A stretch of DNA of 64,000 nucleotides. Origin: a virus. The position numbers were made by a program, and so were the translations under genes. Under the pieces are notes generated by a model, which ran no database searches, was not told the origin of the DNA, and worked only from the letters and a program-made list of their open reading frames with translations. The stretch lies in IMG/VR virus record IMGVR_UViG_3300050821_010639, positions 32,001-96,000 of that record; one strand, given 5' to 3'. Shown here piece by piece: positions 2,563-62,348 of this stretch. Every line of letters starts with the position of its first letter. The first letter of the stretch is position 1.

Positions 2563-2618
2563 CTCTTTGCCTCCTCGTGTTGGTCTGACTCCACCTACTA
2601 CGGCCGGAGCGCTTTTTA

Positions 2619-3719: not shown

Positions 3720-4341
3720 CGACGGTTTCCTTCCGGAGCACGGGCCAGACGATGGCCGGGTGAGCGGGCTTGTTCTTCTTGGCGGGCACGATCCTGGTCA
3801 GGACCGCCCGCCGGTCGGCAGGCATCCGGGCCGGGGCGAAGCCGAGCCAGTCCGCGCCCATGTGAGCCAGGGTGTAGGCGTCGGCGTCGTCGGTGCCGGT
3901 GAAACCGATGTCCGGCCAGCGCCGCTCGGCCGCCAACAGGCACTCTTCCTTGGGAACCCGCCCCTTGCCGGTCAGGTACAGCATCCGCAGGGACGGCTGA
4001 ACGACGGCACACGGGAGGCCGAGCTGGTAGAGCCGGTGCCGGATAACCCAGTGCAGGCCGGCCAGCTCCAGGTGCGCCTCCACGCCCAGGACGCCCGAGC
4101 CGGCGATGCCCTCGATAAGCACCAGGTCGCACCCCTCGGCCGCGCGGACCATGTTGTCCAGGTGCCAGGCCATGCGCTCGGGCCCGCGCAGCTTCGCCGG
4201 CGGCTTCCAGCGGTACAGCGCCGCCGGCTCGCCCAGCGGGCCGATCTTGGCCCCGCCAGACAGGGTGAGCGAGGGGTCAAGGCCCAAGACCCGGAGGCCC
4301 GCCAGGCCAGCCTGGCGGGCCTCCGGCACGGCGTCAGTCAC
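3709..4341 (-). CDS. RuvC-like Holliday junction resolvase
   Basis: [17 protein letters not shown] and DDADAY acidic motifs; adjacent to recA. Confidence 0.85.
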
Positions 4342-5480
4342 TAGTCGGCCAGGATCTCATCGAACGACTGGGCCGGCCTGCCGCCGCCGTTGCTAGCCGC
4401 CGCAGGCGCGCCAGCCATGGCCGGCTCCTCGGCGAACGGGTCAGCCGCCTGCTCAGCAGGGGCGGGCTCCCGCGTCGCGGCGGGCGGGGCGGCGGGCTCG
4501 CCGAACAGGTCATCGTCCACGGCCTGGTCCGGCGCGGCCTTGCTGCCCTGCGGCGCGAACTCGTCCAGGCCGCCAGGGTGGTCGGCGAGCAGGTCGTCCA
4601 GGCTCTTGTCCAGGTCCTGGCCCGGCTGGCCGCTGGACAGCGCGCTGTCGCTGATCGGGTCGGGAACCGGAATCCCGTTCTCGAAGCGTTCGAGCTTCGC
4701 CCACGCGGCCTCAACCGTGTCCACGTCAGTGGTCATGAAGTCGCGGTCCGGCTCCTTCCCGCAGGCGACGCGCAGGTGCGCCTCGGTCGGCCGGTTGGAC
4801 TTCGTTCCCCACAGCGCCTTAACCAGCTCCGCGACCTTCGGGTCACGGTGAGCGGGCCGGAGAGGCGACTTGAACAGGTGCCGCTTGAAGTTATCGTCCT
4901 CGCACCAGACCACCACGTCGGCAGCCCGCCACTCGAACGCTGCTCCCGGCGGAAGGTCCAGCAGGTTCTGGATCTCCGGGCGAACGTCCAGCAGGTTGTT
5001 GTACTGCCGCTGCGTCATCGACCAGACGAGGATCTCCGCCATCGGCGGGACCTGCAGCTCAGTGCTCCCCCGGCTGGTGCACTTGTAGCGGATGACCGGG
5101 ACGGCCCACCGGCGGTCCGGGGACATCCCCCGGGTGCCCTTCACGGCCGAGGCGCAGGCCGGGCACCGGACCGGGTCCAGGCCGTTGCCCGACCCTTCGA
5201 TGACGGAAGGGTCACCCAGGCAGATCTGCCCGCCGACGAACGTCGTGGCGTAGACCTGCTTGTAGACGGACCCGTCCTTGCGCTTCTTGTCCTCCATGAC
5301 GGGCGAGCCGTCCTCGTTGAAATAGGGGGCACGGAAGGCGTGGACCCACTCGTACCACACCTCGTCCCTGTTCCCCGGGATGAGGAGGCGGGCGTACTCC
5401 CCGGTCACCAGCGTGAGGCTGGGGAACTGGTCCGCCTGGCCGCCGGTGCGGAAACCCTCGTCAAGCGATGCTCTCGGCAT
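4341..5480 (-). CDS. Putative phage single-stranded DNA-binding protein (gp32-like)
   Basis: H...C...CPAC Zn-like motif, aromatic-rich core and long acidic tail ending SFDEILAD; lies between resolvase and polymerase. Confidence 0.6.
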   Translation of the reverse strand: MPRASLDEGFRTGGQADQFPSLTLVTGEYARLLIPGNRDEVWYEWVHAFRAPYFNEDGSPVMEDKKRKDGSVYKQVYATTFVGGQICLGDPSVIEGSGNGLDPVRCPACASAVKGTRGMSPDRRWAVPVIRYKCTSRGSTELQVPPMAEILVWSMTQRQYNNLLDVRPEIQNLLDLPPGAAFEWRAADVVVWCEDDNFKRHLFKSPLRPAHRDPKVAELVKALWGTKSNRPTEAHLRVACGKEPDRDFMTTDVDTVEAAWAKLERFENGIPVPDPISDSALSSGQPGQDLDKSLDDLLADHPGGLDEFAPQGSKAAPDQAVDDDLFGEPAAPPAATREPAPAEQAADPFAEEPAMAGAPAAASNGGGRPAQSFDEILAD

Positions 5481-5534
5481 ACTGTCTCCCTGGTCGGATT
5501 CTCTGCCCACCTACTACGCCCGGCGCCCGCAGCC

Positions 5535-5696
5535 TCAGTGATCAGTGACCGCCCTGATTGCCTGCGCCTCGGGAACGACCTCAAGCCGGTCCACCGGGTA
5601 GTTCCAGCGTTCGATCGGGTCGGGAACCTGCAGCTCGAAGTCCCCGAACTCGTGAACGACGCGCGTCAGTTCCTCGATGGCCTCTGTGGCTTTCAT
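5535..5696 (-). CDS. Small hypothetical protein (53 aa)
   Basis: ATG start MKATEAIEEL; GC3-rich. Confidence 0.5.
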   Translation of the reverse strand: MKATEAIEELTRVVHEFGDFELQVPDPIERWNYPVDRLEVVPEAQAIRAVTDH

Positions 5697-5709
5697 GCCG
5701 CCACGATCG

Positions 5710-6198
5710 TCAGCGTTCGAGCGAGGACGACCACGGGATGTAGTGCTGCAATGTGGTGAGCAGCTCGGCGCGGATGTCGCGCAGGCCGAAGAACATGCCC
5801 TTGGCGGCGTCCTCGGCCTGCTCGATGAGGTCGGCGGTAGCCTCGGCGGCCCGCTGCTCACGGCGCTGGGGCGACGACGTGACGCGCGCCTGGACCTCGC
5901 GGTCCTTGACGCTCTCGTACTCGCGGGCCATGGCCGCCTTCGCGAACTTCACCAGCGCCTCGTCATAGGCGTCGGACGTGACGGCGGCGGCCCGCTTCGC
6001 CTCGCGCCGGGCACGGCGCCGGTACCCGGCCACCTCGGCCATGATGACCTCGGCACGGTCCAGCCGGGGCCGCAGCACCTCGCGCAGCACCCGGTGAACC
6101 TCCGCAGGGTCCGCGTCGTGCGCGGGCACCTCGAAAGCGCGCAGCCCGGCCATCTCGTTGAGCAGGTCGGTAACCTGCTGACGGGCGGCCTCAGTCAC
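5710..6198 (-). CDS. Coiled-coil protein, possibly a UvsY-like recombination mediator
   Basis: All-helical 162 aa, translationally coupled, near SSB and RecA. Function is inference. Confidence 0.5.
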   Translation of the reverse strand: MTEAARQQVTDLLNEMAGLRAFEVPAHDADPAEVHRVLREVLRPRLDRAEVIMAEVAGYRRRARREAKRAAAVTSDAYDEALVKFAKAAMAREYESVKDREVQARVTSSPQRREQRAAEATADLIEQAEDAAKGMFFGLRDIRAELLTTLQHYIPWSSSLER

Positions 6199-10911: not shown

Positions 10912-11583
10912 TCACTCCCCGGAGAAAACCGCCTCCAGCGCGACCCGCGTCCCCAGCCGGGCGCCGGGGTAGCGCGCCAGCTCGGTCAGCAGGCGCAGCG
11001 CCTGCTCCGGGCTGACCCCGGGCGCGATGTCGGGGCCGAACACCTTCCACTGGCCGGAGACGGCCTCGGCCGCCCACACCGCGAGCAGCTGCGCCTGGGC
11101 CGGCAGCCAGCCGCGCAGGTTCTGCGCCAGTAGCGCGGCCTGGCCCGAGCGGGCGGCGCGGACGACGGAGGCGACCGCGGCCTTGTCCCGGGAGTCGGCG
11201 GGCTCCGGCCCCGCTTCCCGGGCGGCCACCAGCACCCGGCAGCGGGAAACGACGGTGGGCAGCGGGCGGCGGGCGGCGGCGAGCACGAACCGGGTACAGT
11301 CCGGGGGCTCTTCCAGGGTCTTGAGCAGCATGTTCTGAACCTGGGCCGACGCGCCATCCAGGTTCAGGGCCGTAACCCGCGCCCCTCGCGACGCCCACCA
11401 GGCGTTGTCGCGGATATCGCGTGCAGCGGCGGCATTCAGGTCAAACCGGAACGGCCACCCGTGAACTGCGCACGCCCCGAGCACCAGGGCCCCGGCACCA
11501 GGGCCCAGCACCAGCGTGGCCGGGGGCAACTCGCCCGCCAACTCGGCGAGCACCTGCTCAGGCGTCACGCTTCTCCACCTCAA
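10912..11583 (-). CDS. DNA polymerase III delta' (HolB)-like clamp-loader subunit
   Basis: QNMLLKTLEEPP...FVL...LPTVVSRC signature; no intact Walker A. Confidence 0.85.
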   Translation of the reverse strand: MRWRSVTPEQVLAELAGELPPATLVLGPGAGALVLGACAVHGWPFRFDLNAAAARDIRDNAWWASRGARVTALNLDGASAQVQNMLLKTLEEPPDCTRFVLAAARRPLPTVVSRCRVLVAAREAGPEPADSRDKAAVASVVRAARSGQAALLAQNLRGWLPAQAQLLAVWAAEAVSGQWKVFGPDIAPGVSPEQALRLLTELARYPGARLGTRVALEAVFSGE

Positions 11584-12010
11584 TCCAGGCGTCGTACTCG
11601 GTTCCGATCCAGTCCATGCTGGTGTACTTCTCTACGTGCAGGCCGACGATAACCGGGCCCCGCCAGCCGTAGGTGAACAGGCCGTAGCTCTCCTGGCCGT
11701 TGACCTGCACTCCGCCAGCCCGGAGGCCGAGCACGTAGCCGGGAAATACCTCGAACTCGCCAGTCAGCATGCCGATGCCGTCCGGGTAGAGGTCATCGAC
11801 GCCCGCACGGCAGCGCCGGCACGTCAGCCACACCCCGTCATCCGGGTCGATGTGCAGGTACCAGAGGTGACCGCCCTGCCCCTTGTCGCACAGGTGAACG
11901 GCCAGGGCGTGCCAGGCGCCCTGCACGCCCTCCCGGGCCCGGTGAGCCCGCAAGACGGCATCGCGCTCCGCCGCCTCGTCATCAGTCAGGATGCGCCACT
12001 CAAGCTTCAC
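11558..12010 (-). CDS. Hypothetical protein
   Basis: GTG start (VKLEWR) coupled to the upstream stop. Confidence 0.55.
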   Translation of the reverse strand: MKLEWRILTDDEAAERDAVLRAHRAREGVQGAWHALAVHLCDKGQGGHLWYLHIDPDDGVWLTCRRCRAGVDDLYPDGIGMLTGEFEVFPGYVLGLRAGGVQVNGQESYGLFTYGWRGPVIVGLHVEKYTSMDWIGTEYDAWIEVEKRDA

Positions 12011-15282: not shown

Positions 15283-15660
15283 TTACTGCGCGGCGGCGAC
15301 ACCAGCCGGGGTCAGCGAAAGAGCCTCCGGGCCGGCGTAGGCGCGGTGCGTCCCCTGCCCCGGCGCCTTACCGGTATCCGGGTTTACCACGAGGCCGTCC
15401 TTGTCCAGGGGGGTGCCCGTCTCGTCGTGCCCGGCGATGGCCGCCCGCTGCACCTCCAGCAGGGCATCGATTTCCGCGGTCGCCACTACGTAGGCCGCCG
15501 GCCGGTCTCCCGCGCCGGGCAACTTGTGCAGCGACTTCAGCTTGTGCTCTTCCGTGCCCATCTGGAACAGCCGCTGGCGCTTGACGCGCAGCCGCGCCGC
15601 GGCGAACGGCAGGCTCTCCCAGCCAGGCAGGTCCGGAACAGGGAACTTTTCCTTAGCCAT
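15283..15660 (-). CDS. Helix-turn-helix DNA-binding protein
   Basis: SLPFAAARLRVKRQRLFQM excisionase-like HTH; AAGGAG SD. Confidence 0.6.
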   Translation of the reverse strand: MAKEKFPVPDLPGWESLPFAAARLRVKRQRLFQMGTEEHKLKSLHKLPGAGDRPAAYVVATAEIDALLEVQRAAIAGHDETGTPLDKDGLVVNPDTGKAPGQGTHRAYAGPEALSLTPAGVAAAQ

Positions 15661-15740
15661 GTCATTCTCCTTAAGCCCTCCGCTGAGGGCATTGCTTGCT
15701 GTCTCAGGTATATAGCTTAACCCGAGTCAAGTCTATTCCG

Positions 15741-16271
15741 CTAGACCTGAGACAGCACGCGCCCCATGACCGTTTTCGAGACCGCGAGCCACTTACGGCA
15801 GTCCTCTTCCGTCCGTACCGCGTGCAGCAGCCCGAGGCAGCGGGCCATCGCGCCGGACACAGCCTCGTCGTACTGCCGGGACGCCCAGTCCGGGCAGGCC
15901 CGGCCGCAGTACAGGCGCAGCGCGGTCGCCAGGTCGTCCAGCGCGGGCTCTGGCTCACGCCGCGCGTCCTCCCACAAGTGGGCGTAGCCGACCGGCACGT
16001 AGCCGATCTTGCCCAGTGCCCTGATGGCGGCCGGCTCCTCGTCCATGTTCCAGGCCCTGGCCAGCAACCCGACCGGTGAGAAGTACTCCTGCTCGGCGAA
16101 GCACCACCCGTGGTCCGGGTAGACGCGCAGCGCGCCAGCCTCGCCGCAGGACGGGCACGTCACCTTGACCCCGCGCTCACGAGTGCCCGCGCTGGCCGCT
16201 CCGGCCCACGCCATCGCCCTGTCGAACGAGATCCGCTCGTTGGCGATGGCGTACAGCGACTTGACGCTCAT
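15741..16271 (-). CDS. Primase-type zinc-binding domain protein (no TOPRIM)
   Basis: CPSC...LRVYPDHGWCF; immediately downstream of the helicase. Confidence 0.6.
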   Translation of the reverse strand: MSVKSLYAIANERISFDRAMAWAGAASAGTRERGVKVTCPSCGEAGALRVYPDHGWCFAEQEYFSPVGLLARAWNMDEEPAAIRALGKIGYVPVGYAHLWEDARREPEPALDDLATALRLYCGRACPDWASRQYDEAVSGAMARCLGLLHAVRTEEDCRKWLAVSKTVMGRVLSQV

Positions 16272-17716
16272 TCGAAGTCGATGGACTCCTCGTCCGGCGG
16301 CAGGTCCTGGTCAGCGAAGTAGCTGGTGGCGTAGTCGGCGGTCAGCCGGAACCGGCCCCCGCGCGCGCCGTTGCGGTTCTTCTCGACCGTGAGGGCCAGC
16401 GGCACGGCCCGGCCCCGGGAGGTGTCCTCCTCGGAGAGGGACAGGGAGATAACCGTCGCCGCCGTCTTGCCCGCCTCCGAGGACTGCGACATGTGCTGGT
16501 CGATCGAGAACCCGCCGCCCCCGCCGCGCAGGGCCTGCGAGCCGCCCTGGTTAGCCTGCCAGGGCGACACGAGGGGAACCCCCCGGCCGTGGAACGCCGT
16601 CTGGGCCCAGCGGTGCGCGCTCTTGACGATGCCGGACTGGTTCTCGTGCTCCCTGGAGTCGCGGCTGCGCTGCTGGGGGTCGCACAGCTGCAGGTAGTCG
16701 AACACCATCAAGTCGGGCACCAGGCGCCGGGCCATCGCCTCGGCCCGGCCGGAGAAGACCGGGACCGTGCAGTGCTCGGGCATCTGCACAACCTGGAGTT
16801 CGCCGTACCCGCCGGCCTTCAGGTCAGCGGTGACGGCGGCCAGGGCCCGCTCCTCTTCCTCGCTGAGCCAGCCGGAGGAGATCTTCAGGCTGTCGATCCC
16901 GCGGGCGAGGCCGAACTTGGGGTGGCGCGAGTGCCGGGCCACCAGCTTGACGCGCACCTCGTCGCGGTGCTGCTCAGTGGTGAAGACCAGGACGTTGCGC
17001 CCCTCCATGACCGCGTTGTGCCAGGCGAGCTGCACGCACAGGCTGGACTTGCCCACCGTCGTGCCGGCCACGACCAGCGAGAGCCCCTTGCCGAGGCCGC
17101 CGCCCAGGTAGCGGTCCACGTCCGGCAGGCCGAACTGGATGCCGGCCGGCTTGCCGGAGCGGCGCATCTCCTTCGCGCGGGCGTAGGCGGCCAGCACCTC
17201 GTCGCCCTCGGCGGTGACATTCCCTTCCGGGGTGTCGGACGTGCTGGCGAGCTGCTCAGCCTCGGCCAGGGCCACCTGAACGAACTCGCGCGCGTCGGCG
17301 TGCCCCGCCAGCTCCCGGCCGTCTTCCCCCCGCAGCCCCTCGCGGACAATCTGCATGCCGGTGGCCAGCGCGTCGCCGGTGGCCCGCTCGGCTGCCAGCT
17401 CGCGCAGCTGGTCGACGGAGTGCCGGAACTCGTGCAGCTCGGGCAGGACCGCAGCCAGCGCGTCGTAGGCCTCCTCGTACATCTGCACGGTACCGGGCTT
17501 CCGGCCGCGCAGCAGGTCGCTCAGCGCGTCACGGCTCATGACACCGCCGGTCTGGCCGGCGTACCGCGTCAGCAGCAGGAACAGGGCCCGCTGCACCGGG
17601 TCGGTGAAGTGCTCGCCGCCGACCCGGGCCGACACGTAGTCCAGCGCCCGGACCGACCTGCCGCCCGCCAGGACGGCCGACAGCACCACCTTGCCGTGAG
17701 CTACCGCGTCAGCCAT
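16268..17716 (-). CDS. DnaB-like replicative helicase
   Basis: Walker A AGTTVGKS, FTTE, VFDYLQL, KNRNG. Confidence 0.92.
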   Translation of the reverse strand: MADAVAHGKVVLSAVLAGGRSVRALDYVSARVGGEHFTDPVQRALFLLLTRYAGQTGGVMSRDALSDLLRGRKPGTVQMYEEAYDALAAVLPELHEFRHSVDQLRELAAERATGDALATGMQIVREGLRGEDGRELAGHADAREFVQVALAEAEQLASTSDTPEGNVTAEGDEVLAAYARAKEMRRSGKPAGIQFGLPDVDRYLGGGLGKGLSLVVAGTTVGKSSLCVQLAWHNAVMEGRNVLVFTTEQHRDEVRVKLVARHSRHPKFGLARGIDSLKISSGWLSEEEERALAAVTADLKAGGYGELQVVQMPEHCTVPVFSGRAEAMARRLVPDLMVFDYLQLCDPQQRSRDSREHENQSGIVKSAHRWAQTAFHGRGVPLVSPWQANQGGSQALRGGGGGFSIDQHMSQSSEAGKTAATVISLSLSEEDTSRGRAVPLALTVEKNRNGARGGRFRLTADYATSYFADQDLPPDEESIDFE

Positions 17717-25733: not shown

Positions 25734-27500
25734 TTACTCCTCTGTAGTGTCGGCCGGGGCAGGGGGCTCCGGCGCGTCCGGGTGAAGCGTGAGGCGATCG
25801 GGGAATCGCGCCCCCGGCTCCGGTTCGTCGGTAATGACGACTTCCTGGTGAGCGGGGTGCTCCCAGACGGGCGTGATGCGGACCTGGACAGGCTTGGCGT
25901 TGCGCTGGATGACCAGGGCGTTGAACAGGGGAAGCTGGCGGATGCGCTCCGGCGGGAAGGTGCGCTCCTTAGTGCGGACCCTGGCGCCGCCCTCCTTGTG
26001 CCAGGAGTCGTGCTCACCGCAGATGACAGCCAGCCGCTCCAGGGTGGCCGTGCTGGTGAAGCCGCCGGCGATGACCTTGGTCGACAGCATTTCGAGGATG
26101 GTCTCCGCCTCGGCGGGGCCGCCCCACCCGGTCTCGATCTGGCTGACCGCCTGGAAGCCGGCCACCACCGTGATGTTGTAGCCGGCCGTGACCGCGAGCC
26201 ACCGCTTGAAGTCGATCCTCGCGGTGGTGGCGGCCTCATCGGCGGCTACCAGCAGCGGCATCCTCAGCCGGCCGCCCTGCTGCTCAGCCAAGATGCGGGC
26301 CTGCTCCATGAACTCAGTGACAAACGCCGAGAAGAACGGGGTGAGCGAGCCGTAGGGCCGCTCGGCGCCGATGAGGTAGACAGTCCCGTTCCCCTGGCGC
26401 AGGAACTCCGCGATGCCGAGCCCCTGGCCCGGCCGCGGGCACGCCACCGCGGCCAGCTGCGGGTCGTCCATCCAGCCAAGTGCCGCCTCAGCGGAGGAGA
26501 CGGCGGCGGACAGCAGGTCGCCCTCCATCGCCAGCATCGACTCCAGCCCGTCGGCCCAGCCGGGGGCGGCGCGCTCGCCGCGCAGGGCCTTGGCGAACGC
26601 CTCGGCCTCCGGGTTCAGCACCCAGGCCCGCACGTCGAACATGCTGCCGCCGGTCAGGGCGGCAGCGTGCAGGGCCCAGCGCAGCAGCTTCGCGCCGCGG
26701 TCCTCGTGCCACCTGTCCTTGCCGCCCGGGTCTTTCGGCGAGGCGTCCATGAAGTCGCCCGCGCGGCGCATCGCCACCGCCGGGTCGCGGCAGTCGTCCA
26801 CCGGCGACCAGGAGAACGTGGTGCCGGGACCGTAGCCGTCAGCGTCAAGCGTGAGCACCGGGCCCAGCTTCTCGCGCTCGGTGACGGTGTGCCGGTACTG
26901 GTCACCGCGGGAAGAGGTGGCGAGCACCGGGCCGGGCGCGTCGAGAATCCAGCCGGAGATGAGCGCGGTCTTGATGGACTGCGGCACGCCGAAGACGCCG
27001 ACCGACTCCGCGCGAGAGACGGCGACGGCCTGGTGCGGCCGGTGCACGGTGTACCCGAGCGACAGGTACGACCGCTCGGCGGGCAGGCCGGGGGCGAGCC
27101 GGGCCATCTTCTTCGCCGCGAACGCGGGAGACAGTGCCTGGTGCACCTCCAGCGGGTTCGCCTCGCCCTGGTACTTGCGGCGGCGGCGCTGCGCGGCGTA
27201 GCCGCCCCGGAGGTACCACGACCAGCCCTCCCAGGCGCGCTGGGTGACGTGGTAGGCGCATGCGCCTACCACCGCGAGGTCGTACATCGGGTTGACGCCG
27301 AGCAGCGCGCAGGTACCGAGCCCGGCCGCAGCGGCGACCCCGTACCCGCCGCCGTTGACGACAAGGGCACGGCCGACCGAGGCCAGCGAGCGGTTCAGCG
27401 CGCTGTCGGTGACAGCCAGCCTGCCCGGGTCAGGCAGGTCCCGCCCCGCCGCGCCCTCAATGTCACCCGAGAAGACGGTCATCTTGCTGAGCGCGCTCAC
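25734..27500 (-). CDS. VirD4/TraG-like type IV coupling protein
   Basis: N-terminal hydrophobic segment, VGVFGVPQSIKT (variant Walker A), GPVLATSS, LVAADEAA, FQAVSQIETGWG. Confidence 0.85.
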   Translation of the reverse strand: MSALSKMTVFSGDIEGAAGRDLPDPGRLAVTDSALNRSLASVGRALVVNGGGYGVAAAAGLGTCALLGVNPMYDLAVVGACAYHVTQRAWEGWSWYLRGGYAAQRRRRKYQGEANPLEVHQALSPAFAAKKMARLAPGLPAERSYLSLGYTVHRPHQAVAVSRAESVGVFGVPQSIKTALISGWILDAPGPVLATSSRGDQYRHTVTEREKLGPVLTLDADGYGPGTTFSWSPVDDCRDPAVAMRRAGDFMDASPKDPGGKDRWHEDRGAKLLRWALHAAALTGGSMFDVRAWVLNPEAEAFAKALRGERAAPGWADGLESMLAMEGDLLSAAVSSAEAALGWMDDPQLAAVACPRPGQGLGIAEFLRQGNGTVYLIGAERPYGSLTPFFSAFVTEFMEQARILAEQQGGRLRMPLLVAADEAATTARIDFKRWLAVTAGYNITVVAGFQAVSQIETGWGGPAEAETILEMLSTKVIAGGFTSTATLERLAVICGEHDSWHKEGGARVRTKERTFPPERIRQLPLFNALVIQRNAKPVQVRITPVWEHPAHQEVVITDEPEPGARFPDRLTLHPDAPEPPAPADTTEE

Positions 27501-37800: not shown

Positions 37801-38478
37801 TGGGTGTCTGCTTGCCACGATAGGTGAGAGCTTGACTTGAGTCAAGCGTTAGCGCTGCACTCACAGCCTGCGCTAGGCAGGGGCGGGATGGGGCCGACAT
37901 CACCGGGCCGGCGTATGGCGAACATCTCGACCATGGGCGAGGCGCTGTAGGGCACGTAGCGGAACACGCGCGCGAACGTGCCGGCCGGCTCGCACGTGGT
38001 CGAGATGTCACGCGCCGCGCGCTCTAGCCGGTCCGTGAGCGTGCCGTAACCCTCCCGCCCGCTAACCCACTGGCCCCATTTCCACTGGCCGTTTGGGCGG
38101 TAGACCTCTACCCGGTAGTTGCGCCCCATGTCGTTCATGACTGCCTGCCCTTGCTAGTCGGTTGCCTGCCACTACGATAGGTGAGAGCTTGACTTGAGTC
38201 AAGACACAAGCTAGCCCCGGTAGGCGACCCCTACCGGGGCTAGCTGTCGACCCGGCCTAGCGCCTCGCGCGGGACCTGGCCGCGCCTCGCCGCGTGCGGT
38301 CAGCGCTGCTGTCGCGCGAGGCGCGCGCCACCTTGAAGCCTCGCGAGGCGCTGTAGGTGACCCGTACGCCCATCCTGACTACAGCGCCCGCGGTCCGCGC
38401 GTCAGCGAGGATTGACCGCGCTGTGTCGGGCGAGTAGCGGTAGCTGGCCAGCGTCGCGATTGCGTCGATGTCTTGCAT
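34861..38478 (-). other. Cassette array of small hypothetical CDS (34861-35043, 35248-35466, 35583-35918, 36005-36421, 36745-37002, 37005-37265, 37432-37779, 37842-38138, 38257-38478)
   Basis: Most starts follow the conserved leader motif and a palindrome promoter. Confidence 0.65.
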
Positions 38479-38785: not shown

Positions 38786-38934
38786 TGGTTGCCTGCCCTT
38801 GCTAGTCGGTTGGCGTCTTGCCCTGCCCACCAGTATGCATGAACGCTTGACTTGAGTCAAGAGGATTCGGGAGACGGGAACACGACAGCGCCCCCGGGAA
38901 GCACCTTCCCGGGGGCGCTGCCAGCGCGGGGCGC

Positions 38935-47700: not shown

Positions 47701-50700
47701 GTCCGGGAGAGGGGAGTCAGGCACTGTAGCCACGCCCGGCCACCAGGGCGAGCGTGCACGGCTCGGCGGGCTCGGTCACCGCGGGGACGTACTCCTGTAC
47801 CTGGCCCTCCACCTTGTCGGTGTAGTGCGCCGGCGCGATGACGTGAGTGACCTCAGCCTGTACCAGGGCTGAAACGCGACCGCTCGCGTGGCGGCGGAAC
47901 AGCATGCGCACGTCACCAAAATGGTGGTCGTCGGCAAGCGGGGCGCCCGACGTGTACGACAGCCAGTCCAGCTCATCGGCCATCAGGCCCGCGTGCGTGC
48001 CGTCAGCCAGCTGGTACATCGCCCACAGCCCGGCCTCGTCTCGCGTGTAGACGGGCATCCCGGCCACGCGCACGGGGATACCGGGCTGGTAGCTTTCCCT
48101 GGCCATGTCGGCCATGAAGTTCTCCATCGACGGCGGCTGAGCCGGGATGCCGGCCTCCTGGCCTGTCGCGGGGCGGACGCTGCCGTTCACCTCGTAGGCG
48201 CCCGGCTCAGCCGGGTTCAGGTTGAACTTGCCCAGTAGCGGGGCGACGCGCGACGCGCGAGTCACCCAGTAACGGTTGGTCGCCCACATCTCGCCGGCGT
48301 ACTCGCCCACGAACAATCCGGCGGGGCCGTACTTGGTGCTGTACCCGCGCATGACGCGCTTCTTGATTTCGGTGAAGCTGTTGGGGTCCATCGTGTGCCT
48401 GCCCTTCGGTTGCCTGCTTACAGGTCCAGCTTAAGGCATCACTTGACTCAAGTCAAGTAGCCCTACGCTTGCCTGCCAGCTCTGCGCGCAACGAGTGATC
48501 ATGAGTGCAGCTCCGGGCAGTCGCCGACGTGCGGCCGGTAGCCGGCCCCATAGCTCTAGCGAGTCCTGCTCAGGAACCGGGTCAACGCAGATCGAGCGGA
48601 ATGAGTTCTCGGTAAAGATCAGCTTCTCCGCCCGCAGCAGCACCCACACCGGCCAGTGCGACCCGTAGCGCAGGTCGGTGTGCCTGTCGTGCTCGCGGTC
48701 ATCGAGCGAGAGCGGGCAGTACGCGAACCAGGACCAGGCGCCCGCCACGGTGCAGTGCGCCCGGTAGGTGCGCCGCAGCTCGGTACAGGGAGGCAGGTCC
48801 GCACCTGCCTCCCTCAGCCGCTTGAGCAGGCGCTCGATCTTGGTCACAGCGACGCGGGAGCTGCCGCGTGCGGCAGCTCGGTCAGGAACTCGGCCGGGTA
48901 GTGAGCGCCGCAGCCGCAGAAGACCCCGCCGCAGCCGCAGCGGTCCGGGCCGCCCTCGGGGCGCGCGCCGTGCGGCGCGTGCTCGGTGCAGAACGCCTCT
49001 TCGGCTTGCGCGTGCTCAGGGCGGCCGGCGTCGTATCCGCGCCAAACGACCCCTACCCACTTGCGCTCTACGGTCAGCCCGTCAGCGGTACGGCTCATGA
49101 TGTGCCCCTCTCGGTTGCCTGCTCCGAGTCTAGGGCATGGCTTGACTCAAGTCAAGAAGTCTGGTGATGTCCCCTGGTGTGCACGTCCACCGCGATGTCG
49201 CCCAGCACGTTGCCGGCGTGCCCGAGCAGCTGCAAGAGCACCGCCGCGAACACCGACACGCAGGGCCGGCAGACCCGCGGCATCCTCGGCTGGCCGTCAG
49301 GCGTCATCACCGGGACGTGCAGCGCGGGCGAGTCCTGGTCGCCGCACAGCGCGCACGCCAGCCCGGGAACCATCATGACCTCGGTCTTGCGGTCGGTCAC
49401 GGCCAGCCCTTCCACTCAGTGGCGATGCTGAGCCTGGCGGCGCCCCTCAGCAGGATGGCCGAGCGCTCCCGGCTGCGCGCGGGCAGGTCCACGTAAGCGA
49501 ACAGCCGAGCGCGGGCCGCCGCCACCAGGCGGACCAGGCCGAGCACGTGCGCCGCGTCCCGGCTGTCCTGCTCGGACATCACCCAGTCGCCCGCGCTGGT
49601 GCCTGACGCCTCGCGCAACAGGCGGGCGAACAGCACCCGGTCGTTGTCGCCCTGGCCGTCGCGCAGCTCTCTCAGCAGGCCCTCGCCGTCGGTACCGTCG
49701 TTCATTTTTCTTAACCCCCCACAGGTCAGGGCGGGTGCCGGCCGGCACCCGCCCTTTACTTCCTACGCCGTGCGGTGGTCACCGCGCAGCTTGTTCCGCC
49801 TCAGCCGGCACCACCTGCCAGTAACCATCGGCGTAACCGACCAGGAAAACAGGGCTTCCGGTGACGCTAGCTGACTGAAACCGCTCCGGCCCCAGGCGCG
49901 GGTACTCCTGCGCCCGGCTCACGACCGCCACCACGTGGCCGCGCTGCCGGCGAGTCTGCTCAGCCAGGTACGCTACGGCCTCGCTCCTCGTGAGCCTGCC
50001 CTCGGCACGGCGCTTCTCGTCCGGACCGCGGTACCGCTGCCGGTCAGCTGCTGTCAGGGCCTCCTGCTGCGCAGCCAGGGCGTCATCGAGCGCGCCCTTG
50101 AACGCGGTCACGTCGGTCACGGCGACCTTGCGGATAGGGTCGGCGGGACCGGTCCCGCCGACCAGCAGGACGACGCACTGAGAGCCGTCCGTGGCCACAA
50201 CCAGCTCCGGGGTGAGCTGACGGCCGAACGTGCCCTTTCCCGGCTCAGCCAGCGCGACCTCGGTCACCAGCGACGCCGGCGTGCGCCCGTAGGCACCCGC
50301 GCCAAGGAACTGGTACCCGATGAAGATCCGGTCCGGGTAGTTGTCCAGGTTCAGGAACCAGCCGTCCTGATGCGGCTCAGCGTCGGTGATGACGCCGGTG
50401 TGCTCCGCGTGCAGCGTGCGCGGCCCGCAAGTCGCCTTGATGTAGCGGCGGACCGTCACCCGGTCCCCCGGCCGGGGCTCGTAGGCCCCGGCCTCGCTCT
50501 GCTGAATGCTCACTGGACACCGCCGCGCAGCTCGTTCGCCTTGGCCCGGCACAGGTCCGCCAGCTGGTCAAGCTCAGCGGCGTTCAGGTAGATGTGCTGG
50601 GAGGTGGTGACGCACTCGGGGTTGAGCGTCAGCCGCACCTGGCCGCCGATCTCGGCCCGGCGGACCGCGATGGTCGACTCGTCTTCGGTCACGATGTCGG

Positions 50701-55100: not shown

Positions 55101-55437
55101 CGCGCCAGTTCTCGCCAGGCTGCGCGAGGCCCGGACGGCAGCGTGCCCAGTCCGCTTGCACCTGCTCGGCGCTGCGGTCGAACAGGGTCAGCCCGAACTG
55201 CTCGATGTGGCGGAGCCAGCTCAGCCTGACGCGCTCGCGCCCGGCCGGGCTGTAGTCGTGGCCCAGGGGGCCGATGTCGCCGGCGCTGACCCCGCCGGCC
55301 AGGCAGACCGCAGCGCGGAGGTCCGCCATCGTGGTCTGCTGGTCGGCGTCCGCTACCGGGTCACCCGTCCGCGGCCGGGCTGCGAACATGAGCCGCAGGT
55401 TGGCGTGCATCTGGAGGCTGCCGGGTGCCGCGGTCAC
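52160..55437 (-). other. Cassette hypothetical CDS (52160-52348, 52419-52661, 52818-53058, 53551-54222, 54192-54575, 54572-54778, 54775-54996, 54997-55437)
   Basis: Short coupled ORFs; several Cys-rich. Confidence 0.55.
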
Positions 55438-55850
55438 TCGAAGCTCACTGTCTGCCCGGCCAGCGCCAGCGCCCGCTCGTAGCTGCCAGCGTCGAAGATG
55501 GCCTGACGGAACTCGCGAAGCTCGGCCAGCGGGACGGCCCGAGCGCGCATCGCACCCAGCGTCACGGACAACAGGACTGCGGTGTCGCCGTCATGCAGCG
55601 ACGCGCGCTTCACCCGGACGTCCGGGTAGCGGACGGGCTCGCCAGGGCCGAACTCGGTGGCCAGCACGTCGGCGACCATCTGCTCGTGGTACTCGGCAAC
55701 GTCAACCGGCACGATAGCAGCGATGCGCTTGCCGCTGCTGGCCAGCCAGGTCTTGCGGTCCTGGGCACCGGCCAGGTCGGCCGCGTCCTGCACTTCTTCG
55801 GCCAGCTCCTCGTCGTTCCTGACGTCCAGCTCGATCGTCTTCTCGTCCAT
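55434..55850 (-). CDS. Protein with a Phd/YefM antitoxin-like N-terminus
   Basis: LAEEVQDAA...TWLASSGKRIAAIVPVD resembles the Phd/YefM pattern. Confidence 0.45.
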   Translation of the reverse strand: MDEKTIELDVRNDEELAEEVQDAADLAGAQDRKTWLASSGKRIAAIVPVDVAEYHEQMVADVLATEFGPGEPVRYPDVRVKRASLHDGDTAVLLSVTLGAMRARAVPLAELREFRQAIFDAGSYERALALAGQTVSFE

Positions 55851-55916
55851 GTGCCTGCCCTTCGGTTGGTTGCCTGGTTACAGGGTAGCCTAATGCTTGA
55901 CTTGAGTCAAGACACG

Positions 55917-56465
55917 CCAAAGCCCCGCGGGCAGGGCAGGCAACCGAGATCCGCGGGGCTTCAACGAGAGGGGGAGCCACCGTCTACACACGGCTCAGGA
56001 GAACCCTCGCTAAGCGACAGGCAGGCCAGCTGGCCTGCCTGTCACGCTCTTGAGTTGTACGCGGGTGCCGGGAGCGGACCAGCCCGTCGACTGGAACCTC
56101 CCGGCCCCCACTTCGCTCCGTGTGGGGTGCACCTAAAGCCGCAGGGAGCGCGTCCGCGACCTTCCACACTTGCTCCCGGGCCAGGGGTTTCACTGGTCCG
56201 TAGCGGTGTTGCAGGCCGCCAATGTCCGTACGCTGCCCCGAGGGGCCCGTACTAGCTTGGGCTTAGGTCAAGCTCACGCGTTCGCCAGGTACTCGACCTG
56301 GCCCGGGAAGTCTCTGTTGAGTTATATCCGGCTTACCCTGCCCTTGTGAGTGAGGCCCTGGGCGGGAGGGGCTGCGACTCGCGCTGTAGCCGGTGCTGCT
56401 ACCTTTCTGGGCGCTCCTGGCCGGTCCTCCTCTTGCCTGCTCGCTGACCTTCCGGCCTCGCTCAC
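55917..56465 (-). ncRNA. Putative large structured ncRNA (~550 nt) with an anti-leader 3' loop
   Basis: Own promoter (TTGACA-N18-TATCCT), no credible ORF, many stems (28-bp palindrome 56016-56043; 12-bp pair 56174-56185/56297-56308), and a terminal hairpin plus UUU. Confidence 0.65.
55920..55961 (-). terminator. Intrinsic-terminator-like hairpin with a 20-nt loop
   Basis: 11-bp stem aagccccgcgg/ccgcggggctt ending in UUU on the minus strand. Confidence 0.65.
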
Positions 56466-57057
56466 ATTCAAAGGATAAGGGATCGACTTGACTCGTGTCA
56501 AGTGATCTCCGGTATTTCCTCTCCGCCAGGCTGACCAGGGCCGGAGCCGGGCCGGTAACGCGCTCCTGGGGCCCGCGCTCGCGCTGCCACGCCACGGCCA
56601 GGCCCAGCCGGGCCCGCCAAGCGAGCGCGGACACCGCGTTGGGGCTCATGCCGGAGGTTCGCGCCAGCTCGGCCGGCGTGCGCCCCTCCACCTCGGTCTG
56701 CCACAGCACCGCGCGCCAGCGGGGCGGCAGCGAGTCGAACGCGCGACGGGTCATCCGCTGCTCCTCGGCCGCGGTCGCCAGGTCCCCGGCGCCCGGCACG
56801 CGCACCATGCGAGGATCGAGCGGCACGGGGTCGATGCGCCTGCGCTCGGCCAGCCAGTCGCGTGCCAGGTTGCGCACCGCGGCCAGCAGGTAGGGCCGGA
56901 ACGCGCCGTCGGGGCCGTGGCCGGCCCGCTGCCTGGCCAGCACCCGGGTGAACGCCTCCGCCACGATGTCATCGGCCGCGTGCGCGGGCACCAGGGCCAG
57001 GGCCACGCGGCGCGCGGCGCTCCGGTGCTCGGCGTACAGGTCGGCGAACTCGGGCAT
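56263..57057 (-). CDS. ECF-type sigma-70 factor
   Basis: FADLYAEH, ADDIVAEAFTRV, AFRPYLLAAVRN, LPPRWRAVLW...SPNAVSALAWRAR. The last ~90 aa run into the putative ncRNA. Confidence 0.88.
   Translation of the reverse strand: MPEFADLYAEHRSAARRVALALVPAHAADDIVAEAFTRVLARQRAGHGPDGAFRPYLLAAVRNLARDWLAERRRIDPVPLDPRMVRVPGAGDLATAAEEQRMTRRAFDSLPPRWRAVLWQTEVEGRTPAELARTSGMSPNAVSALAWRARLGLAVAWQRERGPQERVTGPAPALVSLAERKYRRSLDTSQVDPLSFECERGRKVSEQARGGPARSAQKGSSTGYSASRSPSRPGPHSQGQGKPDITQQRLPGPGRVPGERVSLT
56472..56502 (-). promoter_or_regulatory. Promoter of the putative ncRNA
   Basis: TTGACA within the palindrome, 18-nt spacer, TATCCT. Confidence 0.75.
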
Positions 57058-57114
57058 GGCGGCATGCTAATGGCCCCCGGCGCGATGCCGGGGGCCATTT
57101 CGCTTAGCGCGCTA

Positions 57115-59107
57115 CTACTGGCCCGAGAGACCGTTGAGTACGTCCTCGAAAGGCCGCGGCTGCGCTCGGGCCAGCGGTAGCTCCAGGGCCTCGCGCAGCT
57201 CGCAGACCAGCATCTCCGCCACCCGGCGGCGCGAGCGCAACTCGGGAAAAGGGATCTCGTCCAGGTGAGCCTCAGCGATGGTAAGCACCCGGGCGAACGC
57301 CTCGCGCTCGGGCTCGCTCAGGTCCAGCAGGACCAGCGGGTTCGGGGGGTTGTAGCCGATGCGCTTGATCATTTCTGCCCTGCTTTCCCGCGGCGGCCCG
57401 GCCGCACGTAGTCCTTGTAGCGATATTGGGCTGCTATGGCCGTCAGCGGCGGCTCACCGCGGCACCCGGGGATGTTCTCCTCACTCCACGCCGCCGTGTT
57501 CAGGTTGAGGTCGTAGACGACACCGGGCTTATCCGCGTGCATGGGAAGCTTTGCCTCCACCAGCAGCGGGGTGCTCTCCAGGTAGAGGCCGGTACAGGCG
57601 CTGCACAGCCGGTCGCCGCTGCACGCCGTCAGGCCGTCGAACCTGACGGCGTTGTGCTCGTACGGGACGCCCGGCTTACCGCACCACGAGCACGCCGGCT
57701 GGCGCGCGTGCTCGGCGTCGGCGTACGCCTGGATGCCTGCGGTGAGGTCGCTCACGTCAGGCATCCTTGCGCAGGTTAGGGAAGTCGTACTTGCCGAAGT
57801 CCGAGCCGTCCGCCGGCCAGCCGCGCGGTGCCACGCCGAACCCGCCGTCGAAGTCAGCCTCCCCGCTCGCACGGGGGCGGTCTTCGAGAATGCTCTGCGC
57901 GACAGCGGCCTTAGCGCCGGACTGCCCGTAGAAGTAGCCGCTCCAGAAGTGCGCGAACGCCTTGTCCGGGCCATCTAGCCCGCTGTCGCGAATGCCCTCC
58001 ACCATCTGTGCAACCGAGCGCTGGTCGGACGGGTCGAACTTGACGATCTCGCGCTCGGTGCCTTCCTCAAACAGGATGACCCATCGGCCGATCTGCTGGA
58101 TAAGGAACCGCCCGCTCGGAAGTCGCGCCATCATGCCACCGGCCCCGGGTAGAAGCCCTTGAGCATCTTGTGCGTGTCCGGAATGCGGTCGCGAAACGCC
58201 GGCGGGATGGCACCGCCGAACCACATGTTGGTCGACACCAGCACCGGGCCGCCGTCCAGTGGCTGAAACTCGAACCGGTACCCGCCGAACCCGCGCATGC
58301 CCTTCGCGGCCTCGTCGCCGACGCTGAACCAGCAGTGGTTCTCGATGACCACGCCCTCCCGGCCCTTCGCCAGCTCGGCGATGTGCTTCTCCCAGCGGGC
58401 ATCGTCGTTGTCGGTCCACGGCCCGCTCACCCTGACCGAGATGCACTGCGACGCCGGCAGGCCCGGCTGAGCGTAAGCCTGCACGTGCCAGACACTCGCC
58501 GACCCGTTCGGGTGCCAGCGGTGCACGATGGCCGAGCACCCCCGGCCATCGGCGCGGAACAGGCCCAGGGTCACCGACCCGGCCACCGTGCCGTCCATCG
58601 GCACGAGCTTGTCGCACTCGGCCTGTACCGCCTCCTCCAGCGCGCGGGCCTGCGCGACGGCCAGGACCCCGGCCGACAGCCCGGTACCGCCGCCGTGCGA
58701 GCGCGGCTCGGCGTCTTTCGCGGCCTGCACGGCCTTCCACAGGTCACTGCCCTCGTCACAGCGAACGATCATGACCTGGCCAGCCTGTTCAGCCGGTCGA
58801 TCTCGGCCGCCAGCAGAGCACCCGCCTCGCGCGGGCCCTCCTCGTCAGACCCGATGTCCGCGGTGCCCTGCTGGCGGCCGACCTTGACCCGGGCGAGCAG
58901 GAGGCTCGCCATGCTGGCCAGGTCGGCCGTAGCCGTGAACCCGTCATCGTGCTCAGGGGTATAGTTCAGCTGCTCGATCTGCCGACGGCGCTCGCGGATG
59001 ACCTCCGCCACTCCGTCCACCGCGCCAGCCTGGTGGAGGTAGGCGATGTCACCCCAGATGGCTTTCAGCGCCTCCACCTGCAAGATATAGTCCGGTACCT
59101 GGCTCAT
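57115..59107 (-). other. Hypothetical CDS run (57115-57372, 57369-57764, 57757-58131, 58131-58772, 58769-59107)
   Basis: Coupled ORFs. 58769-59107 has ERRRQ...TPEHDD...AGALLAAEIDRL, recalled as a common phage domain. Confidence 0.55.
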
Positions 59108-59544: not shown

Positions 59545-62348
59545 CTAACCACCGTGCTTCGCCTGGTTGTGCTCCCGGGCCCGATTGATAACGACGTCCA
59601 GACTCGGGTGGTAACCGATCTCGAAGTAAGCCCGGAGGTTCGCTGCTGCGCACTTGTGGCAGTGCAGTGCGGTCGTGCCCCGGTCAGGAATGACGGTGAA
59701 CTGGCCGCTGAACTCCGACAGCGGCAGCCCTGCGGGCTCGCGGATGTCATCGACGCCGTGCCAGTACATCCGCTCCGCCACCCGCCAAAGCAGGTCATAC
59801 AGGTTGTCACCACTGATGGTGACGTTCTCAGCCGTCGTGAGCGGCCGGTCCTCGTCGTCGTACTCGGTGTCACGGATGCGCGGGTCCACCTCGTTGTCGA
59901 CCAGCCAGCGCTTCAGCCGCGCCATGGTCGACTCGCCTTGCGGGTAGTCGCGGTCATCAGCCGCGCGGGCCTGCTCGCGCTCGCTCGGCCGGGTGTCCTG
60001 GTCAAGCAGGAACGGCACGCCGCGCGTCATGTAGTGGCGGAAAAACTGGTCCCAGCCGTCGTGCGCAGTGTCGCTCCACACCTCCCGGCCGTCGACCTCA
60101 ACGGCGATGCCGTCGGTCCCCTCGTCCCAGGTGATGAACTTGATCGTCTTCAACGTGCCCGCCCCTCGTCGCCTGTGCCTGCTTGCGGGTCAGCTAGCCC
60201 CGCAGCCGCGGGGCTGCGCCCCCAGGCCTCCCGGGCCGCGTCGTTCCCGTAAATGACGTGAAACACCTGGTCCTTGCGCCGTCGCCGTTCGGTCTTGTCG
60301 GGAGCGGCACTGATGTACGCCGCTGCCTTGCGGTACGCGGCGTCACTCGCCTCGCTCATGAGCCCGCCCTTCTAGTTGCGCGCGCAGTCCGGCCAGCCGG
60401 ACGCGCCTACCCCTGTTACGTGCTGGCCCGCCGGGCAGAACACGGTGGGCGGGGTGAAGATCGCGGGCACGGCGTCGTGGTGCCTCAGGTGCCCGGCCAC
60501 GGTAGCGGCGATCATGAAAAAGGCGACCCCCGCGACCACGGTCACCAGGGCAATCACCACAGCCGACCTCATGACTCGCCTTCAATCACCAGGTCGTTGT
60601 CGGTCTGGTCGGCGCCGAAGCGCGGGATGCCCGGCTCAGCGCCGGACCCGATGATGACGCCGTTGGCCGCGCGCCGCTCGCCAGGCCGCAGTTCGATGTT
60701 CAGGGTCTTGTCTCCCGGTGCCTGTGTCACGGCCACAGCTTACGCAGTGTCTTGACTAGAGTCAAGTAATCAGACATTTTCGGCGGGCCGCCGACCGTCC
60801 GCAGCCAGAGGAAGACGCCAGCCGCGCCGTTCGCGAACCCGAAGGCCACAATGCCGAACGGGAGCCACCAGCCCTCCAGGCCGGTCCAGAGCATGAGCCA
60901 GAAGCCGACGCTCATGCTGAAAAAGCACATGATGACCCAGGGGTGGCGCTGCACGGGGTTCATCCGAGAGTCCCCTCACCGCTAGCGAAGATGCCGTCCG
61001 CGGCCTCGCGCACGGTGGACAGCGTGAAGTCGTGCGCCGGGAGCACGCCGGTCAGGAACCGCGCTGCCACGTCAAGCGGGTCAGGCTCCGCCGGCGGGTC
61101 CGGCAGCTCGGGCGCGTCCAGCTCGGGCCACCACTCGGCCACGCTGCTGCCGTCCTCCCACCAGGTGACCTCTTCCGAGCGCTGCACCTCCACGGAGGCG
61201 CCGAGCCACGTCAGCATCAGAGCCCGGCTGTACGCGCCCGACGCTGACAGGTACAGGTGGTTGCGCGGCCAGCGGAACCCCCGCTTGCGCAGCGCGTTGC
61301 GCCGCTTGCGGTCCTTGACCGCGGCGAGCACCTGGGGCCAGGCCTCCGGTACCCACCCGGGCTCACCTGACCCGGGCGGGTAGAGGACGTTCAGCCGGTA
61401 GACGTGGACAGGGCGCTCAGGCATCGTCCGCACCCGCCAGCAGCTCAGGCTCCAGCGACCAGAACAGGACGGTGACCGGCTCGCCGGGGGCGATGCCCAG
61501 GTGCTGCTGGACTACGGCCAGGGCCGACTTGAAGGCTGAGGCGCGCGTCTTCGCCCGGCCAGCCTGCTCAGCGGTCATGGTGCCCTCAACCGTCTGCGCA
61601 GTGAGTGTGCCGAAGCCCAGCTTGTTCCACTGCACGGTCATGACCCAGAACCAGTTCACCGGTCCGCGCCCCCGTCGGTGATGGCGCGGGTGATCGCGTC
61701 CGGCTCAAGGCCGGCCCGCTCGGCCATCCGGGTAACCATGGCCTCAAGGTCGTTGCGGGACTGCTCCACCACGGTCTCGGCGTGCTCGTCCAGCTTCCTG
61801 GTCGCGAACTCCACGTTGGGCACGGCGTTGGCGATGGCGGCCCGCAAGTCGGACAGCCGGGCCTTCCGCTCTGCGGCCGGAGCCGGGGGCTTGGCGTTCA
61901 GCGCAGCCTCGTAAGCAGCCTCAGCAGTCTGGATCTTGGCAAACGCGTCGTGCGCTGCAGCCCGCACCTCGTCGTGGGTGAGCGAGAACCGGGGAGCGGG
62001 GCGGAGGCCAGGCCGGTCGCCCGGCTCCTGCGTGCCGGTCGCGGTCCACTCGATCGTGCAGGGAACGCCGTCGCCCTGGCCGGTACTGGCCACGAACGAG
62101 GCGAACTGCGCCATCGACAGGCTGATTTCGCAGACCATCCGCTCCTGGTACACGCGGTCAGTGTGCAGGTCGCGCTTGCGGGTAGCCTCGTGGACCGTGA
62201 CCCGCATGTACTCCGGGTGCCGGACATCGGACTGGAACAGCACCGCACCCGGGGTAGAGCTGATCCGGTGAAGGCTGACCAGCCCGAACGCCGGGTGGGT
62301 TTCGTCCCCGTTCTCGCCGGTCGTGGAGTCCTCGTACTGCTTAGGCAT
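59545..62348 (-). other. Hypothetical CDS run (59545-60153, 60150-60359, 60372-60572, 60727-60963, 60960-61433, 61417-61659, 61656-62348)
   Basis: Coupled ORFs, two of them small membrane proteins. Confidence 0.55.

Follow-up and report, generated by a model that had tools for sequence, protein, structure and literature searches.

Why would a phage genome carry a short motif in the leaders of its early genes, always in one orientation, and a single inverted copy of that motif in the loop of a non-coding hairpin? The question is raised by a 64,000-nucleotide stretch of DNA, referred to here as the window, that spans bases 32001-96000 of an IMG/VR virus record of 152,046 bp, which is rated complete. 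The virus is a large uncultivated soil actinophage (152-kb, 70% GC); the window itself is ~70% G+C, and nearly all of its genes lie on the minus strand. The hairpin closes a region at 55917-56465 (minus strand) that, judged by how it is conserved among relatives, is a structured non-coding RNA gene and not a relic. We propose, with a probability of about one half, that this RNA is a trans-acting antisense regulator whose terminal loop pairs with early-gene leaders and occludes the ribosome-binding sites of the whole class; its transcription, the pairing in vivo and the direction of the effect are what we infer.

The terminal hairpin (55920-55961, minus strand) consists of an 11-bp G+C-rich stem (55961-55951 with 55930-55920) and a 20-nucleotide loop at 55950-55931 that reads 5'-AUCUCGGUUGCCUGCCCUGC-3', matching to the base the original prediction, which had been made from the window alone. 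The minus strand of the window has 20 copies of AGGGCAGGCA and the plus strand has one, which is the loop (0.28 expected); for GGCAACCGA the counts are eight on the minus strand and one, again the loop, on the plus strand (0.82 expected). Over the whole 152-kb genome the corresponding counts for AGGGCAGGCA are 21 and 1, so that its inverted copy is the sole one genome-wide. Twenty of the 21 exact sense copies are found within genome positions 63.7-94.9 kb, and the putative target class, at 31684-62873 of the window (minus strand), is defined by 20 exact sense copies of AGGGCAGGCA together with copies of a 5' box. The full 20-mer complement of the loop has one occurrence in the window. The longest perfect complements, all of them exactly as first listed, are of 14 nucleotides (49109-49122), 13 nucleotides (38158-38170 and 38787-38799) and 12 nucleotides (48406-48417), and the sense strand of the genome holds four 11-mers, 22 ten-mers and 14 nine-mers besides. 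The 22 ten-mers and seven longer perfect complements (11-14 nucleotides) are nearly all located at gene starts.

Many leaders carry two boxes, CAGGCAACCGAG at the predicted 5' end of the mRNA and AGGGCAGGCA near the start codon, and the leader consensus can be written (C)AGGCAACCGAG..GAAGGGCAGGCAC, followed after 1-5 nucleotides by ATG. That leaders would carry two sites, and that the two motifs are complements of overlapping halves of one loop, had both been predicted; the boxes share CAGGCA within the loop complement. The first box begins 5-10 nucleotides past the -10 element, placing it where the mRNA is predicted to begin. From the end of the second box to the start codon there are 2-6 nucleotides; this box overlaps a degenerate Shine-Dalgarno element (GAAGGG, or GG-C-AGG), while between 16 and 62 nucleotides separate it from the promoter. 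With a fixed gap to the start codon and a variable distance to the promoter, the motif is start-associated, and this position argues that it acts at the RNA or translation level. It is asymmetric, has a single orientation, precedes non-structural or early genes only and extends beyond the Shine-Dalgarno element. The leader at 55852-55876 (minus strand) serves as an example, with the 5' box CAGGCAACC at 55876-55868 and AGGGCAGGCA at 55861-55852, 1 nucleotide before the ATG at 55850. A crude census of ribosome-binding sites by region was too rough for anything past the clustering of the motif.

A 45-kb stretch around the early-gene region contains 27 promoters of the same type, each with a palindromic -35 element, TTGACTCAAGTCAAG, and then TAnnCT; 19 of them are followed by GGGCAGGCA and 12 by GGCAACCGA (at most one mismatch each). 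One such palindromic element, at 55896-55910 (minus strand), heads the next cassette after the hairpin (gene 55434-55850). In all, ~27 near-identical TTGACTCAAGTCAAG elements head small early cassettes at 27684-62873 of the window (minus strand; genome 59.7-97 kb).

Related phages and soil metagenomes yielded 12 homologs of the RNA. The carriers found were four related phage genomes (125-151 kb), eight contigs from soil metagenomes and a more distant 151-kb phage, G005. Among the homologs that include the 3' end, UGCCUGCC is kept in 11 of 11 (examples are GCCCUAGCGG, GCCCCGUCGG and GGCCCCCCGUG), in loops of 20-26 nucleotides on stems that differ. In an alignment of these 11 sequences (alignment A3), TGCCTGCC is invariant; in the terminal stem 8 of 12 pairs have changed at both positions and pairing holds in 92% of cells, compared with 39-55% in slid controls. 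The UGCCU of the loop is predicted to be unpaired (P~1) in every full-length homolog. On this comparative evidence the anti-leader loop is under selection. The leader motif and the promoter palindrome are also kept, in 5 of 5 related full genomes; RGGCAGGCA occurs in the related genomes 14-39 times in the sense and 1-5 times in the inverted orientation.

The hairpin is presumed to be the 3' end of the RNA or its terminator, and the promoter of the next cassette begins 10 nucleotides past it. A terminator scan of 55300-57200 detected no canonical intrinsic terminator: the loop has 20 nucleotides, where the criterion allows not more than 8, and the tail is only UUUGG. The U-tracts of relatives are better, with tails such as AUUUUUAUC or ACCUUUUUC, and termination at the hairpin is plausible but atypical.

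At its other end the RNA gene has the best sigma-70-type promoter of the early region, TTGACA-N18-TATCCT at 56501-56472 (minus strand), just as first proposed. It matches the consensus at 10 of 12 positions, is the sole sigma-70-like match that a promoter scan returned in 55300-57200 and has its TTGACA within the palindrome TTGACAcgaGTCAAG; the predicted transcription start is at ~56465. Relatives for which upstream sequence is included have the same promoter, TTGACA.GAGT[CA]AAG, before the RNA. The transcript would be ~545 nucleotides long here (~550 had been estimated) and ranges from 340 to >1200 nucleotides in homologs, the variation in length arising through inserted hairpins. Its predicted fold has a minimum free energy of -270.7 kcal/mol (z = -2.4), and among homologs the region changes through indels and compensatory base-pair changes, with no codon conservation.

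Directly upstream lies a gene for an ECF-type (extracytoplasmic function) sigma factor (56560-57057, minus strand; Pfam Sigma70_r2 and r4_2), an arrangement seen in the window and in 9 of 9 homolog contigs with upstream sequence, at 60-85% identity of the sigma factor. No stop codon interrupts its open reading frame (ORF) ahead of the RNA promoter, and the frame stays open to 56263, for 264 amino acids, thereby running ~100 codons into the RNA gene (56263-56559). In a relative, L011, the sigma ORF ends just before the promoter (186 amino acids), so that the overlap with the 5' part of the RNA in the window is best read as read-through, and the earlier statement that the region has no credible ORF of its own stands. 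Three things argue for a predicted independent transcription unit: the promoter, the conservation of the terminal hairpin with another promoter right after it, and the absence of any conserved ORF. The sequencing runs listed for the region are soil DNA runs, with no RNA run among them.

Upstream of the hairpin the RNA has a conserved core junction (56173-56310, minus strand), in which ACCUGGCGAACGCGUGAG, a variable hairpin and CAACACCGCUACGGACCAG-GAAAC lie within an outer helix, CUUCCCGGGC / GCCCGGGAG; its general layout is CUUCCCGGGC..ACCUGGCGAACGC-N-UGAG, hairpin, CAACAC-N-GCU-N-CGGACCAG..GCCCGGG. An alignment of 12 sequences (alignment A4) has 42 invariant columns in the core, and in the helices called by RNAalifold 97.4% of cells are paired, with both-side changes in 6 pairs and 16 cells. 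None of 500 shuffles reached this covariation, and slid controls paired at 30-48%; covariation in the terminal stem is stronger still. A further candidate pair, N/N' in GC-N-UG / CAC-N'-GC, was rejected: 10 sequences have G-C, C-G or A-U there, but 2 have A-G. The core is also found in the distant homolog (L209 762-2100, plus strand, corresponding to ~15477-16800 of G005), where the RNA exceeds 1.2 kb; the G005 genome has the promoter palindrome TTGACnnnnGTCAG and the leader variants CAGGGCAGGCA and CAGGGAAGGCA.

The RNA family is previously undescribed, phage-only and absent from Rfam. A search of the whole window against Rfam 15 at the gathering score returned no family (ROOL, GOLLD, HEARO, OLE, 6S, RNase P and tmRNA included), and within 55800-56600 a search at E<=10 gave noise only (E 0.13-9). 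ARAGORN found no tRNA or tmRNA. Among 185,579 bacterial genomes there was no true homolog of the RNA, all 61 pattern matches being due to chance. The family thus adds a large structured phage-only RNA, of 340 to >1200 nucleotides, to those outside Rfam.

Two further features of the RNA body were observed. Within the RNA, at 56014-56045 of the window (minus strand), there is a palindromic hairpin of 14 bp without a mismatch, GUGACAGGCAGGCCAGCUGGCCUGCCUGUCGC, which is not conserved in homologs; it contains a sense-like copy, CAGGCAGGC, and an antisense-like copy, GCCUGCCUG, of the motif core that sequester each other. The sequence RACAACUCAACAGAG and its variants, which look single-stranded, are present in 2-3 copies per RNA, in the window (56311-56325 and 56046-56060, minus strand) and in homologs too, always immediately before a helix, like a domain separator or a repeated binding site.

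In the mechanism that we favour, the RNA would be transcribed from its sigma-70-type promoter and fold into a multi-domain structure with the conserved junction core, leaving UGCCUGCC and its flanks exposed in the terminal loop. The loop would then form G-C-rich duplexes of 8-14 nucleotides with early-gene leaders, which are short and rich in purines, at two boxes: GGCAGGCA, which lies over the degenerate Shine-Dalgarno element and the spacer 2-6 nucleotides before the start codon, and CAGGCAACCGAG, at the very start of the mRNA. Pairing with GGCAGGCA would keep the 30S subunit from binding, so that translation of all genes of the class would stop jointly, and RNase III cleavage may follow. 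With the sigma gene next to it, the RNA could make up an early-to-middle switch module that provides a new transcription specificity and silences the early messages. Alternatively, pairing at the 5' end may stabilize or protect the mRNAs. Such pairing is partly supported by an enriched, single-orientation, start-associated motif, the sole inverted copy of which, in 152 kb, lies in a non-coding hairpin loop.

If loop and leaders pair, they might be expected to match best within a genome, and co-variation in relatives had been named as a way of checking the prediction. In genomes G000-G002 the loops end in CCCUGC and 60-76% of the leaders have a G before GGCAGGCA; an A-type loop occurs there alongside GGGCAGGCA leaders. 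G003 has a U-rich B loop flank (CCUUUCG) and leaders with a mixture of A and G (consensus CGAGRGGCAGGCA), and 13 contiguous pairs, including wobbles, are possible. For 4 of 5 genomes in a cross-comparison, the longest Watson-Crick match to the leaders came from the genome's own loop; the five genomes amount to about two or three independent lineages.

Several observations weigh against regulation by loop-leader pairing. The own loop of G004 is the worst fit to its leaders, with just an 8-nucleotide core match, and when G-U pairs are allowed the G003 loop fits all genomes best. Co-variation between loop and leader is thus weak: of the proposal that one RNA regulates a gene class, the conserved structured RNA gene, the loop invariant in 11 of 11 and the start-associated motif hold up, and this part does so poorly. 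G005 has retained the core of the RNA, and its leaders have a similar motif (CAGGGMAGGCA), but it is without the anti-motif terminal loop; its best anti-leader match is of 8 nucleotides, in a loop context that is not established. Energies are no help. In a check of the IntaRNA type suggested with the original prediction, here with RNAduplex, the loop was paired with 40-nucleotide segments of both strands and gave a mean of -16.8 kcal/mol, with a third of all segments reaching -18; ~5,900 of roughly 15,000 sense segments were at -18 kcal/mol or lower, and scrambled loops gave 2,400-6,000. At 70% GC, duplex energies do not discriminate. The leader consensus, GA-AGGGCAGGCA-C, is longer than the complement that the loop offers, and one RNA acting on 20-35 mRNA species would need to be highly abundant.

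A parallel case points the same way. Cluster K mycobacteriophages have start-associated sequences (SAS) of their own, taken up again below, and an anti-SAS hairpin loop that is kept in Anaya, Angelica, Niklas and Biglebops (alignment A2). In phages of other subclusters the loop differs (Hammy, Krueger, Bryler, ShedlockHolmes) or has been deleted (Yuna), and all five phages keep 15-20 consensus SAS copies. Since these phages keep SAS without the loop, and G005 keeps its motif without one, a motif of this kind can function without such an RNA.

These observations bear on a different account, in which the RNA is a ribonucleoprotein scaffold or another functional RNA whose core binds RNA polymerase or a sigma factor, a nuclease or the ribosome, with leader complementarity being secondary. 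The loop would then serve the RNA itself, by pairing with the RNA's own 5' CAGGCA box, by binding protein or by stabilizing the 3' end. The ~42 invariant positions in a multi-helix junction exceed what antisense action needs, G005 keeps the core without the loop, and the RNA always adjoins a sigma gene. Several homologs, moreover, start with (U)CAGGCAG or GCAGGCAAG, which are complementary to the loop, but this 5' box is missing in G004, L082 and L093. A loop that served only the RNA would also not be expected to match two different leader boxes over up to 14 nucleotides, and loop and leader motif are both invariant in the same genomes, for which pairing is the simplest account. We regard the scaffold account, the main rival to antisense action, as unlikely, although the elaborate conserved core goes beyond a simple antisense role and leaves room for a scaffold or a guide.

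The latter would combine the two functions: the junction core could bind a machine (the 30S subunit, RNA polymerase with the neighbouring sigma factor, or a nuclease), and the loop would guide motif-tagged early mRNAs to it. We consider this a doubtful proposition. If true, it would make the RNA a phage-encoded, RNA-guided specificity factor for the translation or decay of a gene class and the partner of start-associated sequences.

Alternatively, a protein might bind the motif in the DNA in an oriented manner, much as cluster A mycobacteriophages use stoperators; the hairpin copy would then be one more site. An asymmetric motif in one orientation near promoters with a palindromic, operator-like -35 element would suit such a site. 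Its position, however, is fixed relative to start codons, at 2-6 nucleotides, and not to promoters, which are 16-77 nucleotides away, and the inverted copy sits in the loop of a stem that changes freely while its pairing is kept, which fits an RNA and not a protein-recognized inverted repeat; we hold this explanation to be very unlikely. That the loop is a functionless inverted relic of a cassette leader, as the original prediction allowed, or a chance match is scarcely credible, since UGCCUGCC is kept in 11 homologs whose stems differ, 8 of 12 stem pairs compensating, whose RNA bodies have diverged and whose sigma factors are 60-85% identical, and since the chance expectation is ~0.14 per 10-mer copy on the loop's strand; conservation refutes a neutral relic, although the loop complement resembles two leader boxes fused at their shared CAGGCA and an origin of the loop from leader DNA is possible. 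An idea that the loop mimics 16S rRNA, based on CUGCCCUGC as a candidate match to a Streptomyces 16S segment, was dropped; the loops of G003 and G004 are without CUGCCCUGC.

The phage itself is remote from those in culture. There were zero DNA matches to cultured relatives among 50,697 phage records, and the best identity of its PolA is 34%, to a Microbacterium phage. PolA, DnaB, RecA and an SNF2 helicase are encoded in the window. Adjoining the replication genes is a 588-amino-acid protein (25734-27500, minus strand) with domains of the TraG/TrwB coupling-protein type (Pfam PF12696, PF10412).

How does the proposed antisense regulator compare with known systems? The original prediction knew of none with this layout, which overstated its novelty: RNAIII and 6C work in this way, and the target motif parallels cluster K SAS. 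What is new is the RNA family, the phage context and the link to SAS-type motifs, not the kind of mechanism. In phage T4, the RegB endoribonuclease and the RegA translational repressor inactivate a class of early mRNAs via their ribosome-binding sites and so time the early-to-middle switch. The specificity factors of T4 are proteins, whereas here the factor would be an RNA loop, which suggests that big phages can time early-gene shut-off by RNA instead of protein.

RNAIII of Staphylococcus aureus is 514 nucleotides long and also encodes the small peptide delta-haemolysin. A homolog of the present RNA offers a likeness to this: in genome G001 (L014 ~11440-11585, plus strand) a 46-codon ORF with its own AGGGCAGGCA leader lies between the RNA promoter and the RNA body, and in G001 the RNA may be a transcript with two functions, or else a long 3' untranslated region (UTR). 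RNAIII is a multi-hairpin regulatory RNA in whose 3' domain (nts 391-516) the C-rich loops 7 and 13 act on the ribosome-binding sites of several mRNAs; it prevents initiation and brings about RNase III cleavage, and its targets often have two sites, those of rot being in the 5' UTR and at the ribosome-binding site (PMC2837412). Both are thus large multi-hairpin RNAs that set a C-rich loop against the Shine-Dalgarno region of several mRNAs, as predicted here. With base-pairing regulatory RNAs of the RNAIII / RsaE / 6C / CyaR type the present RNA shares a conserved sequence in a loop predicted to be unpaired and a complementarity to the ribosome-binding regions of several mRNAs. The two have no relationship in sequence or structure, however, and the present RNA is phage-encoded and read from sequence alone; its targets are the element's own early genes with a dedicated 10-nucleotide motif, in contrast to ordinary Shine-Dalgarno sequences, and it has a single 20-nucleotide loop with an 8-nucleotide invariant core. 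The 6C small RNA of Mycobacterium and Streptomyces has C-rich loops that pair with G-rich single-stranded mRNA sites, chaperone-free, in high-GC Gram-positives (PMC6486639). 6C shows that the proposed pairing chemistry works in the likely host phylum, although 6C is small, host-encoded, of another family and without a dedicated target motif. RNAIII and 6C both serve as Gram-positive precedents for the mechanism without Hfq.

The role of cluster K SAS was left open in 2011, with "either RNA or protein" partners (PMC3203893), and was still called unknown in 2024 (PMC11373665) and 2025 (PMC12699233). Like the motif described here, SAS is asymmetric, lies in one orientation 3-9 nucleotides before the starts of 11-19 non-structural genes, overlaps but exceeds the Shine-Dalgarno element, and often follows a promoter with inverted repeats (extended SAS, ESAS). 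The TTGACTCAAGTCAAG elements, in turn, look like combined promoter and operator sites and so parallel the ESAS. Cluster K1 phages also have one inverted SAS copy in the hairpin loop of a conserved non-coding region. In Anaya (JF704106 ~59860-59895; L042 34860-34895, plus strand) it is, on the transcribed strand, the 10-nucleotide loop CCUCCUAUCC of a hairpin with the stem GCGCGG/CCGCGC, around which there is a second stem; it sits in a 385-bp non-coding gap between gp96 and gp97, a region that is for the most part without annotation and is conserved across 182 cluster K phages. The SAS consensus is GGGATAGGAGCCC, compared with AGGGCAGGCA here, and phage group and genome size differ, so that the motif system of the window's phage is an analogue of cluster K SAS and not a member. 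Two unrelated phage groups have thus put an anti-motif in a hairpin loop, each with a motif that is independent of it, and an accessory regulator fits best. Actinobacteriophage start-associated motifs have been without a known partner or function since 2011, and in the analogous system described here there is a conserved RNA with an exact loop complement. Changes to the loop, changes to the leader and compensatory changes make this a concrete, mutable hypothesis, and the layout of one inverted motif in a loop, which is shared with cultivable cluster K1 mycobacteriophages, opens the idea to bench work in M. smegmatis.

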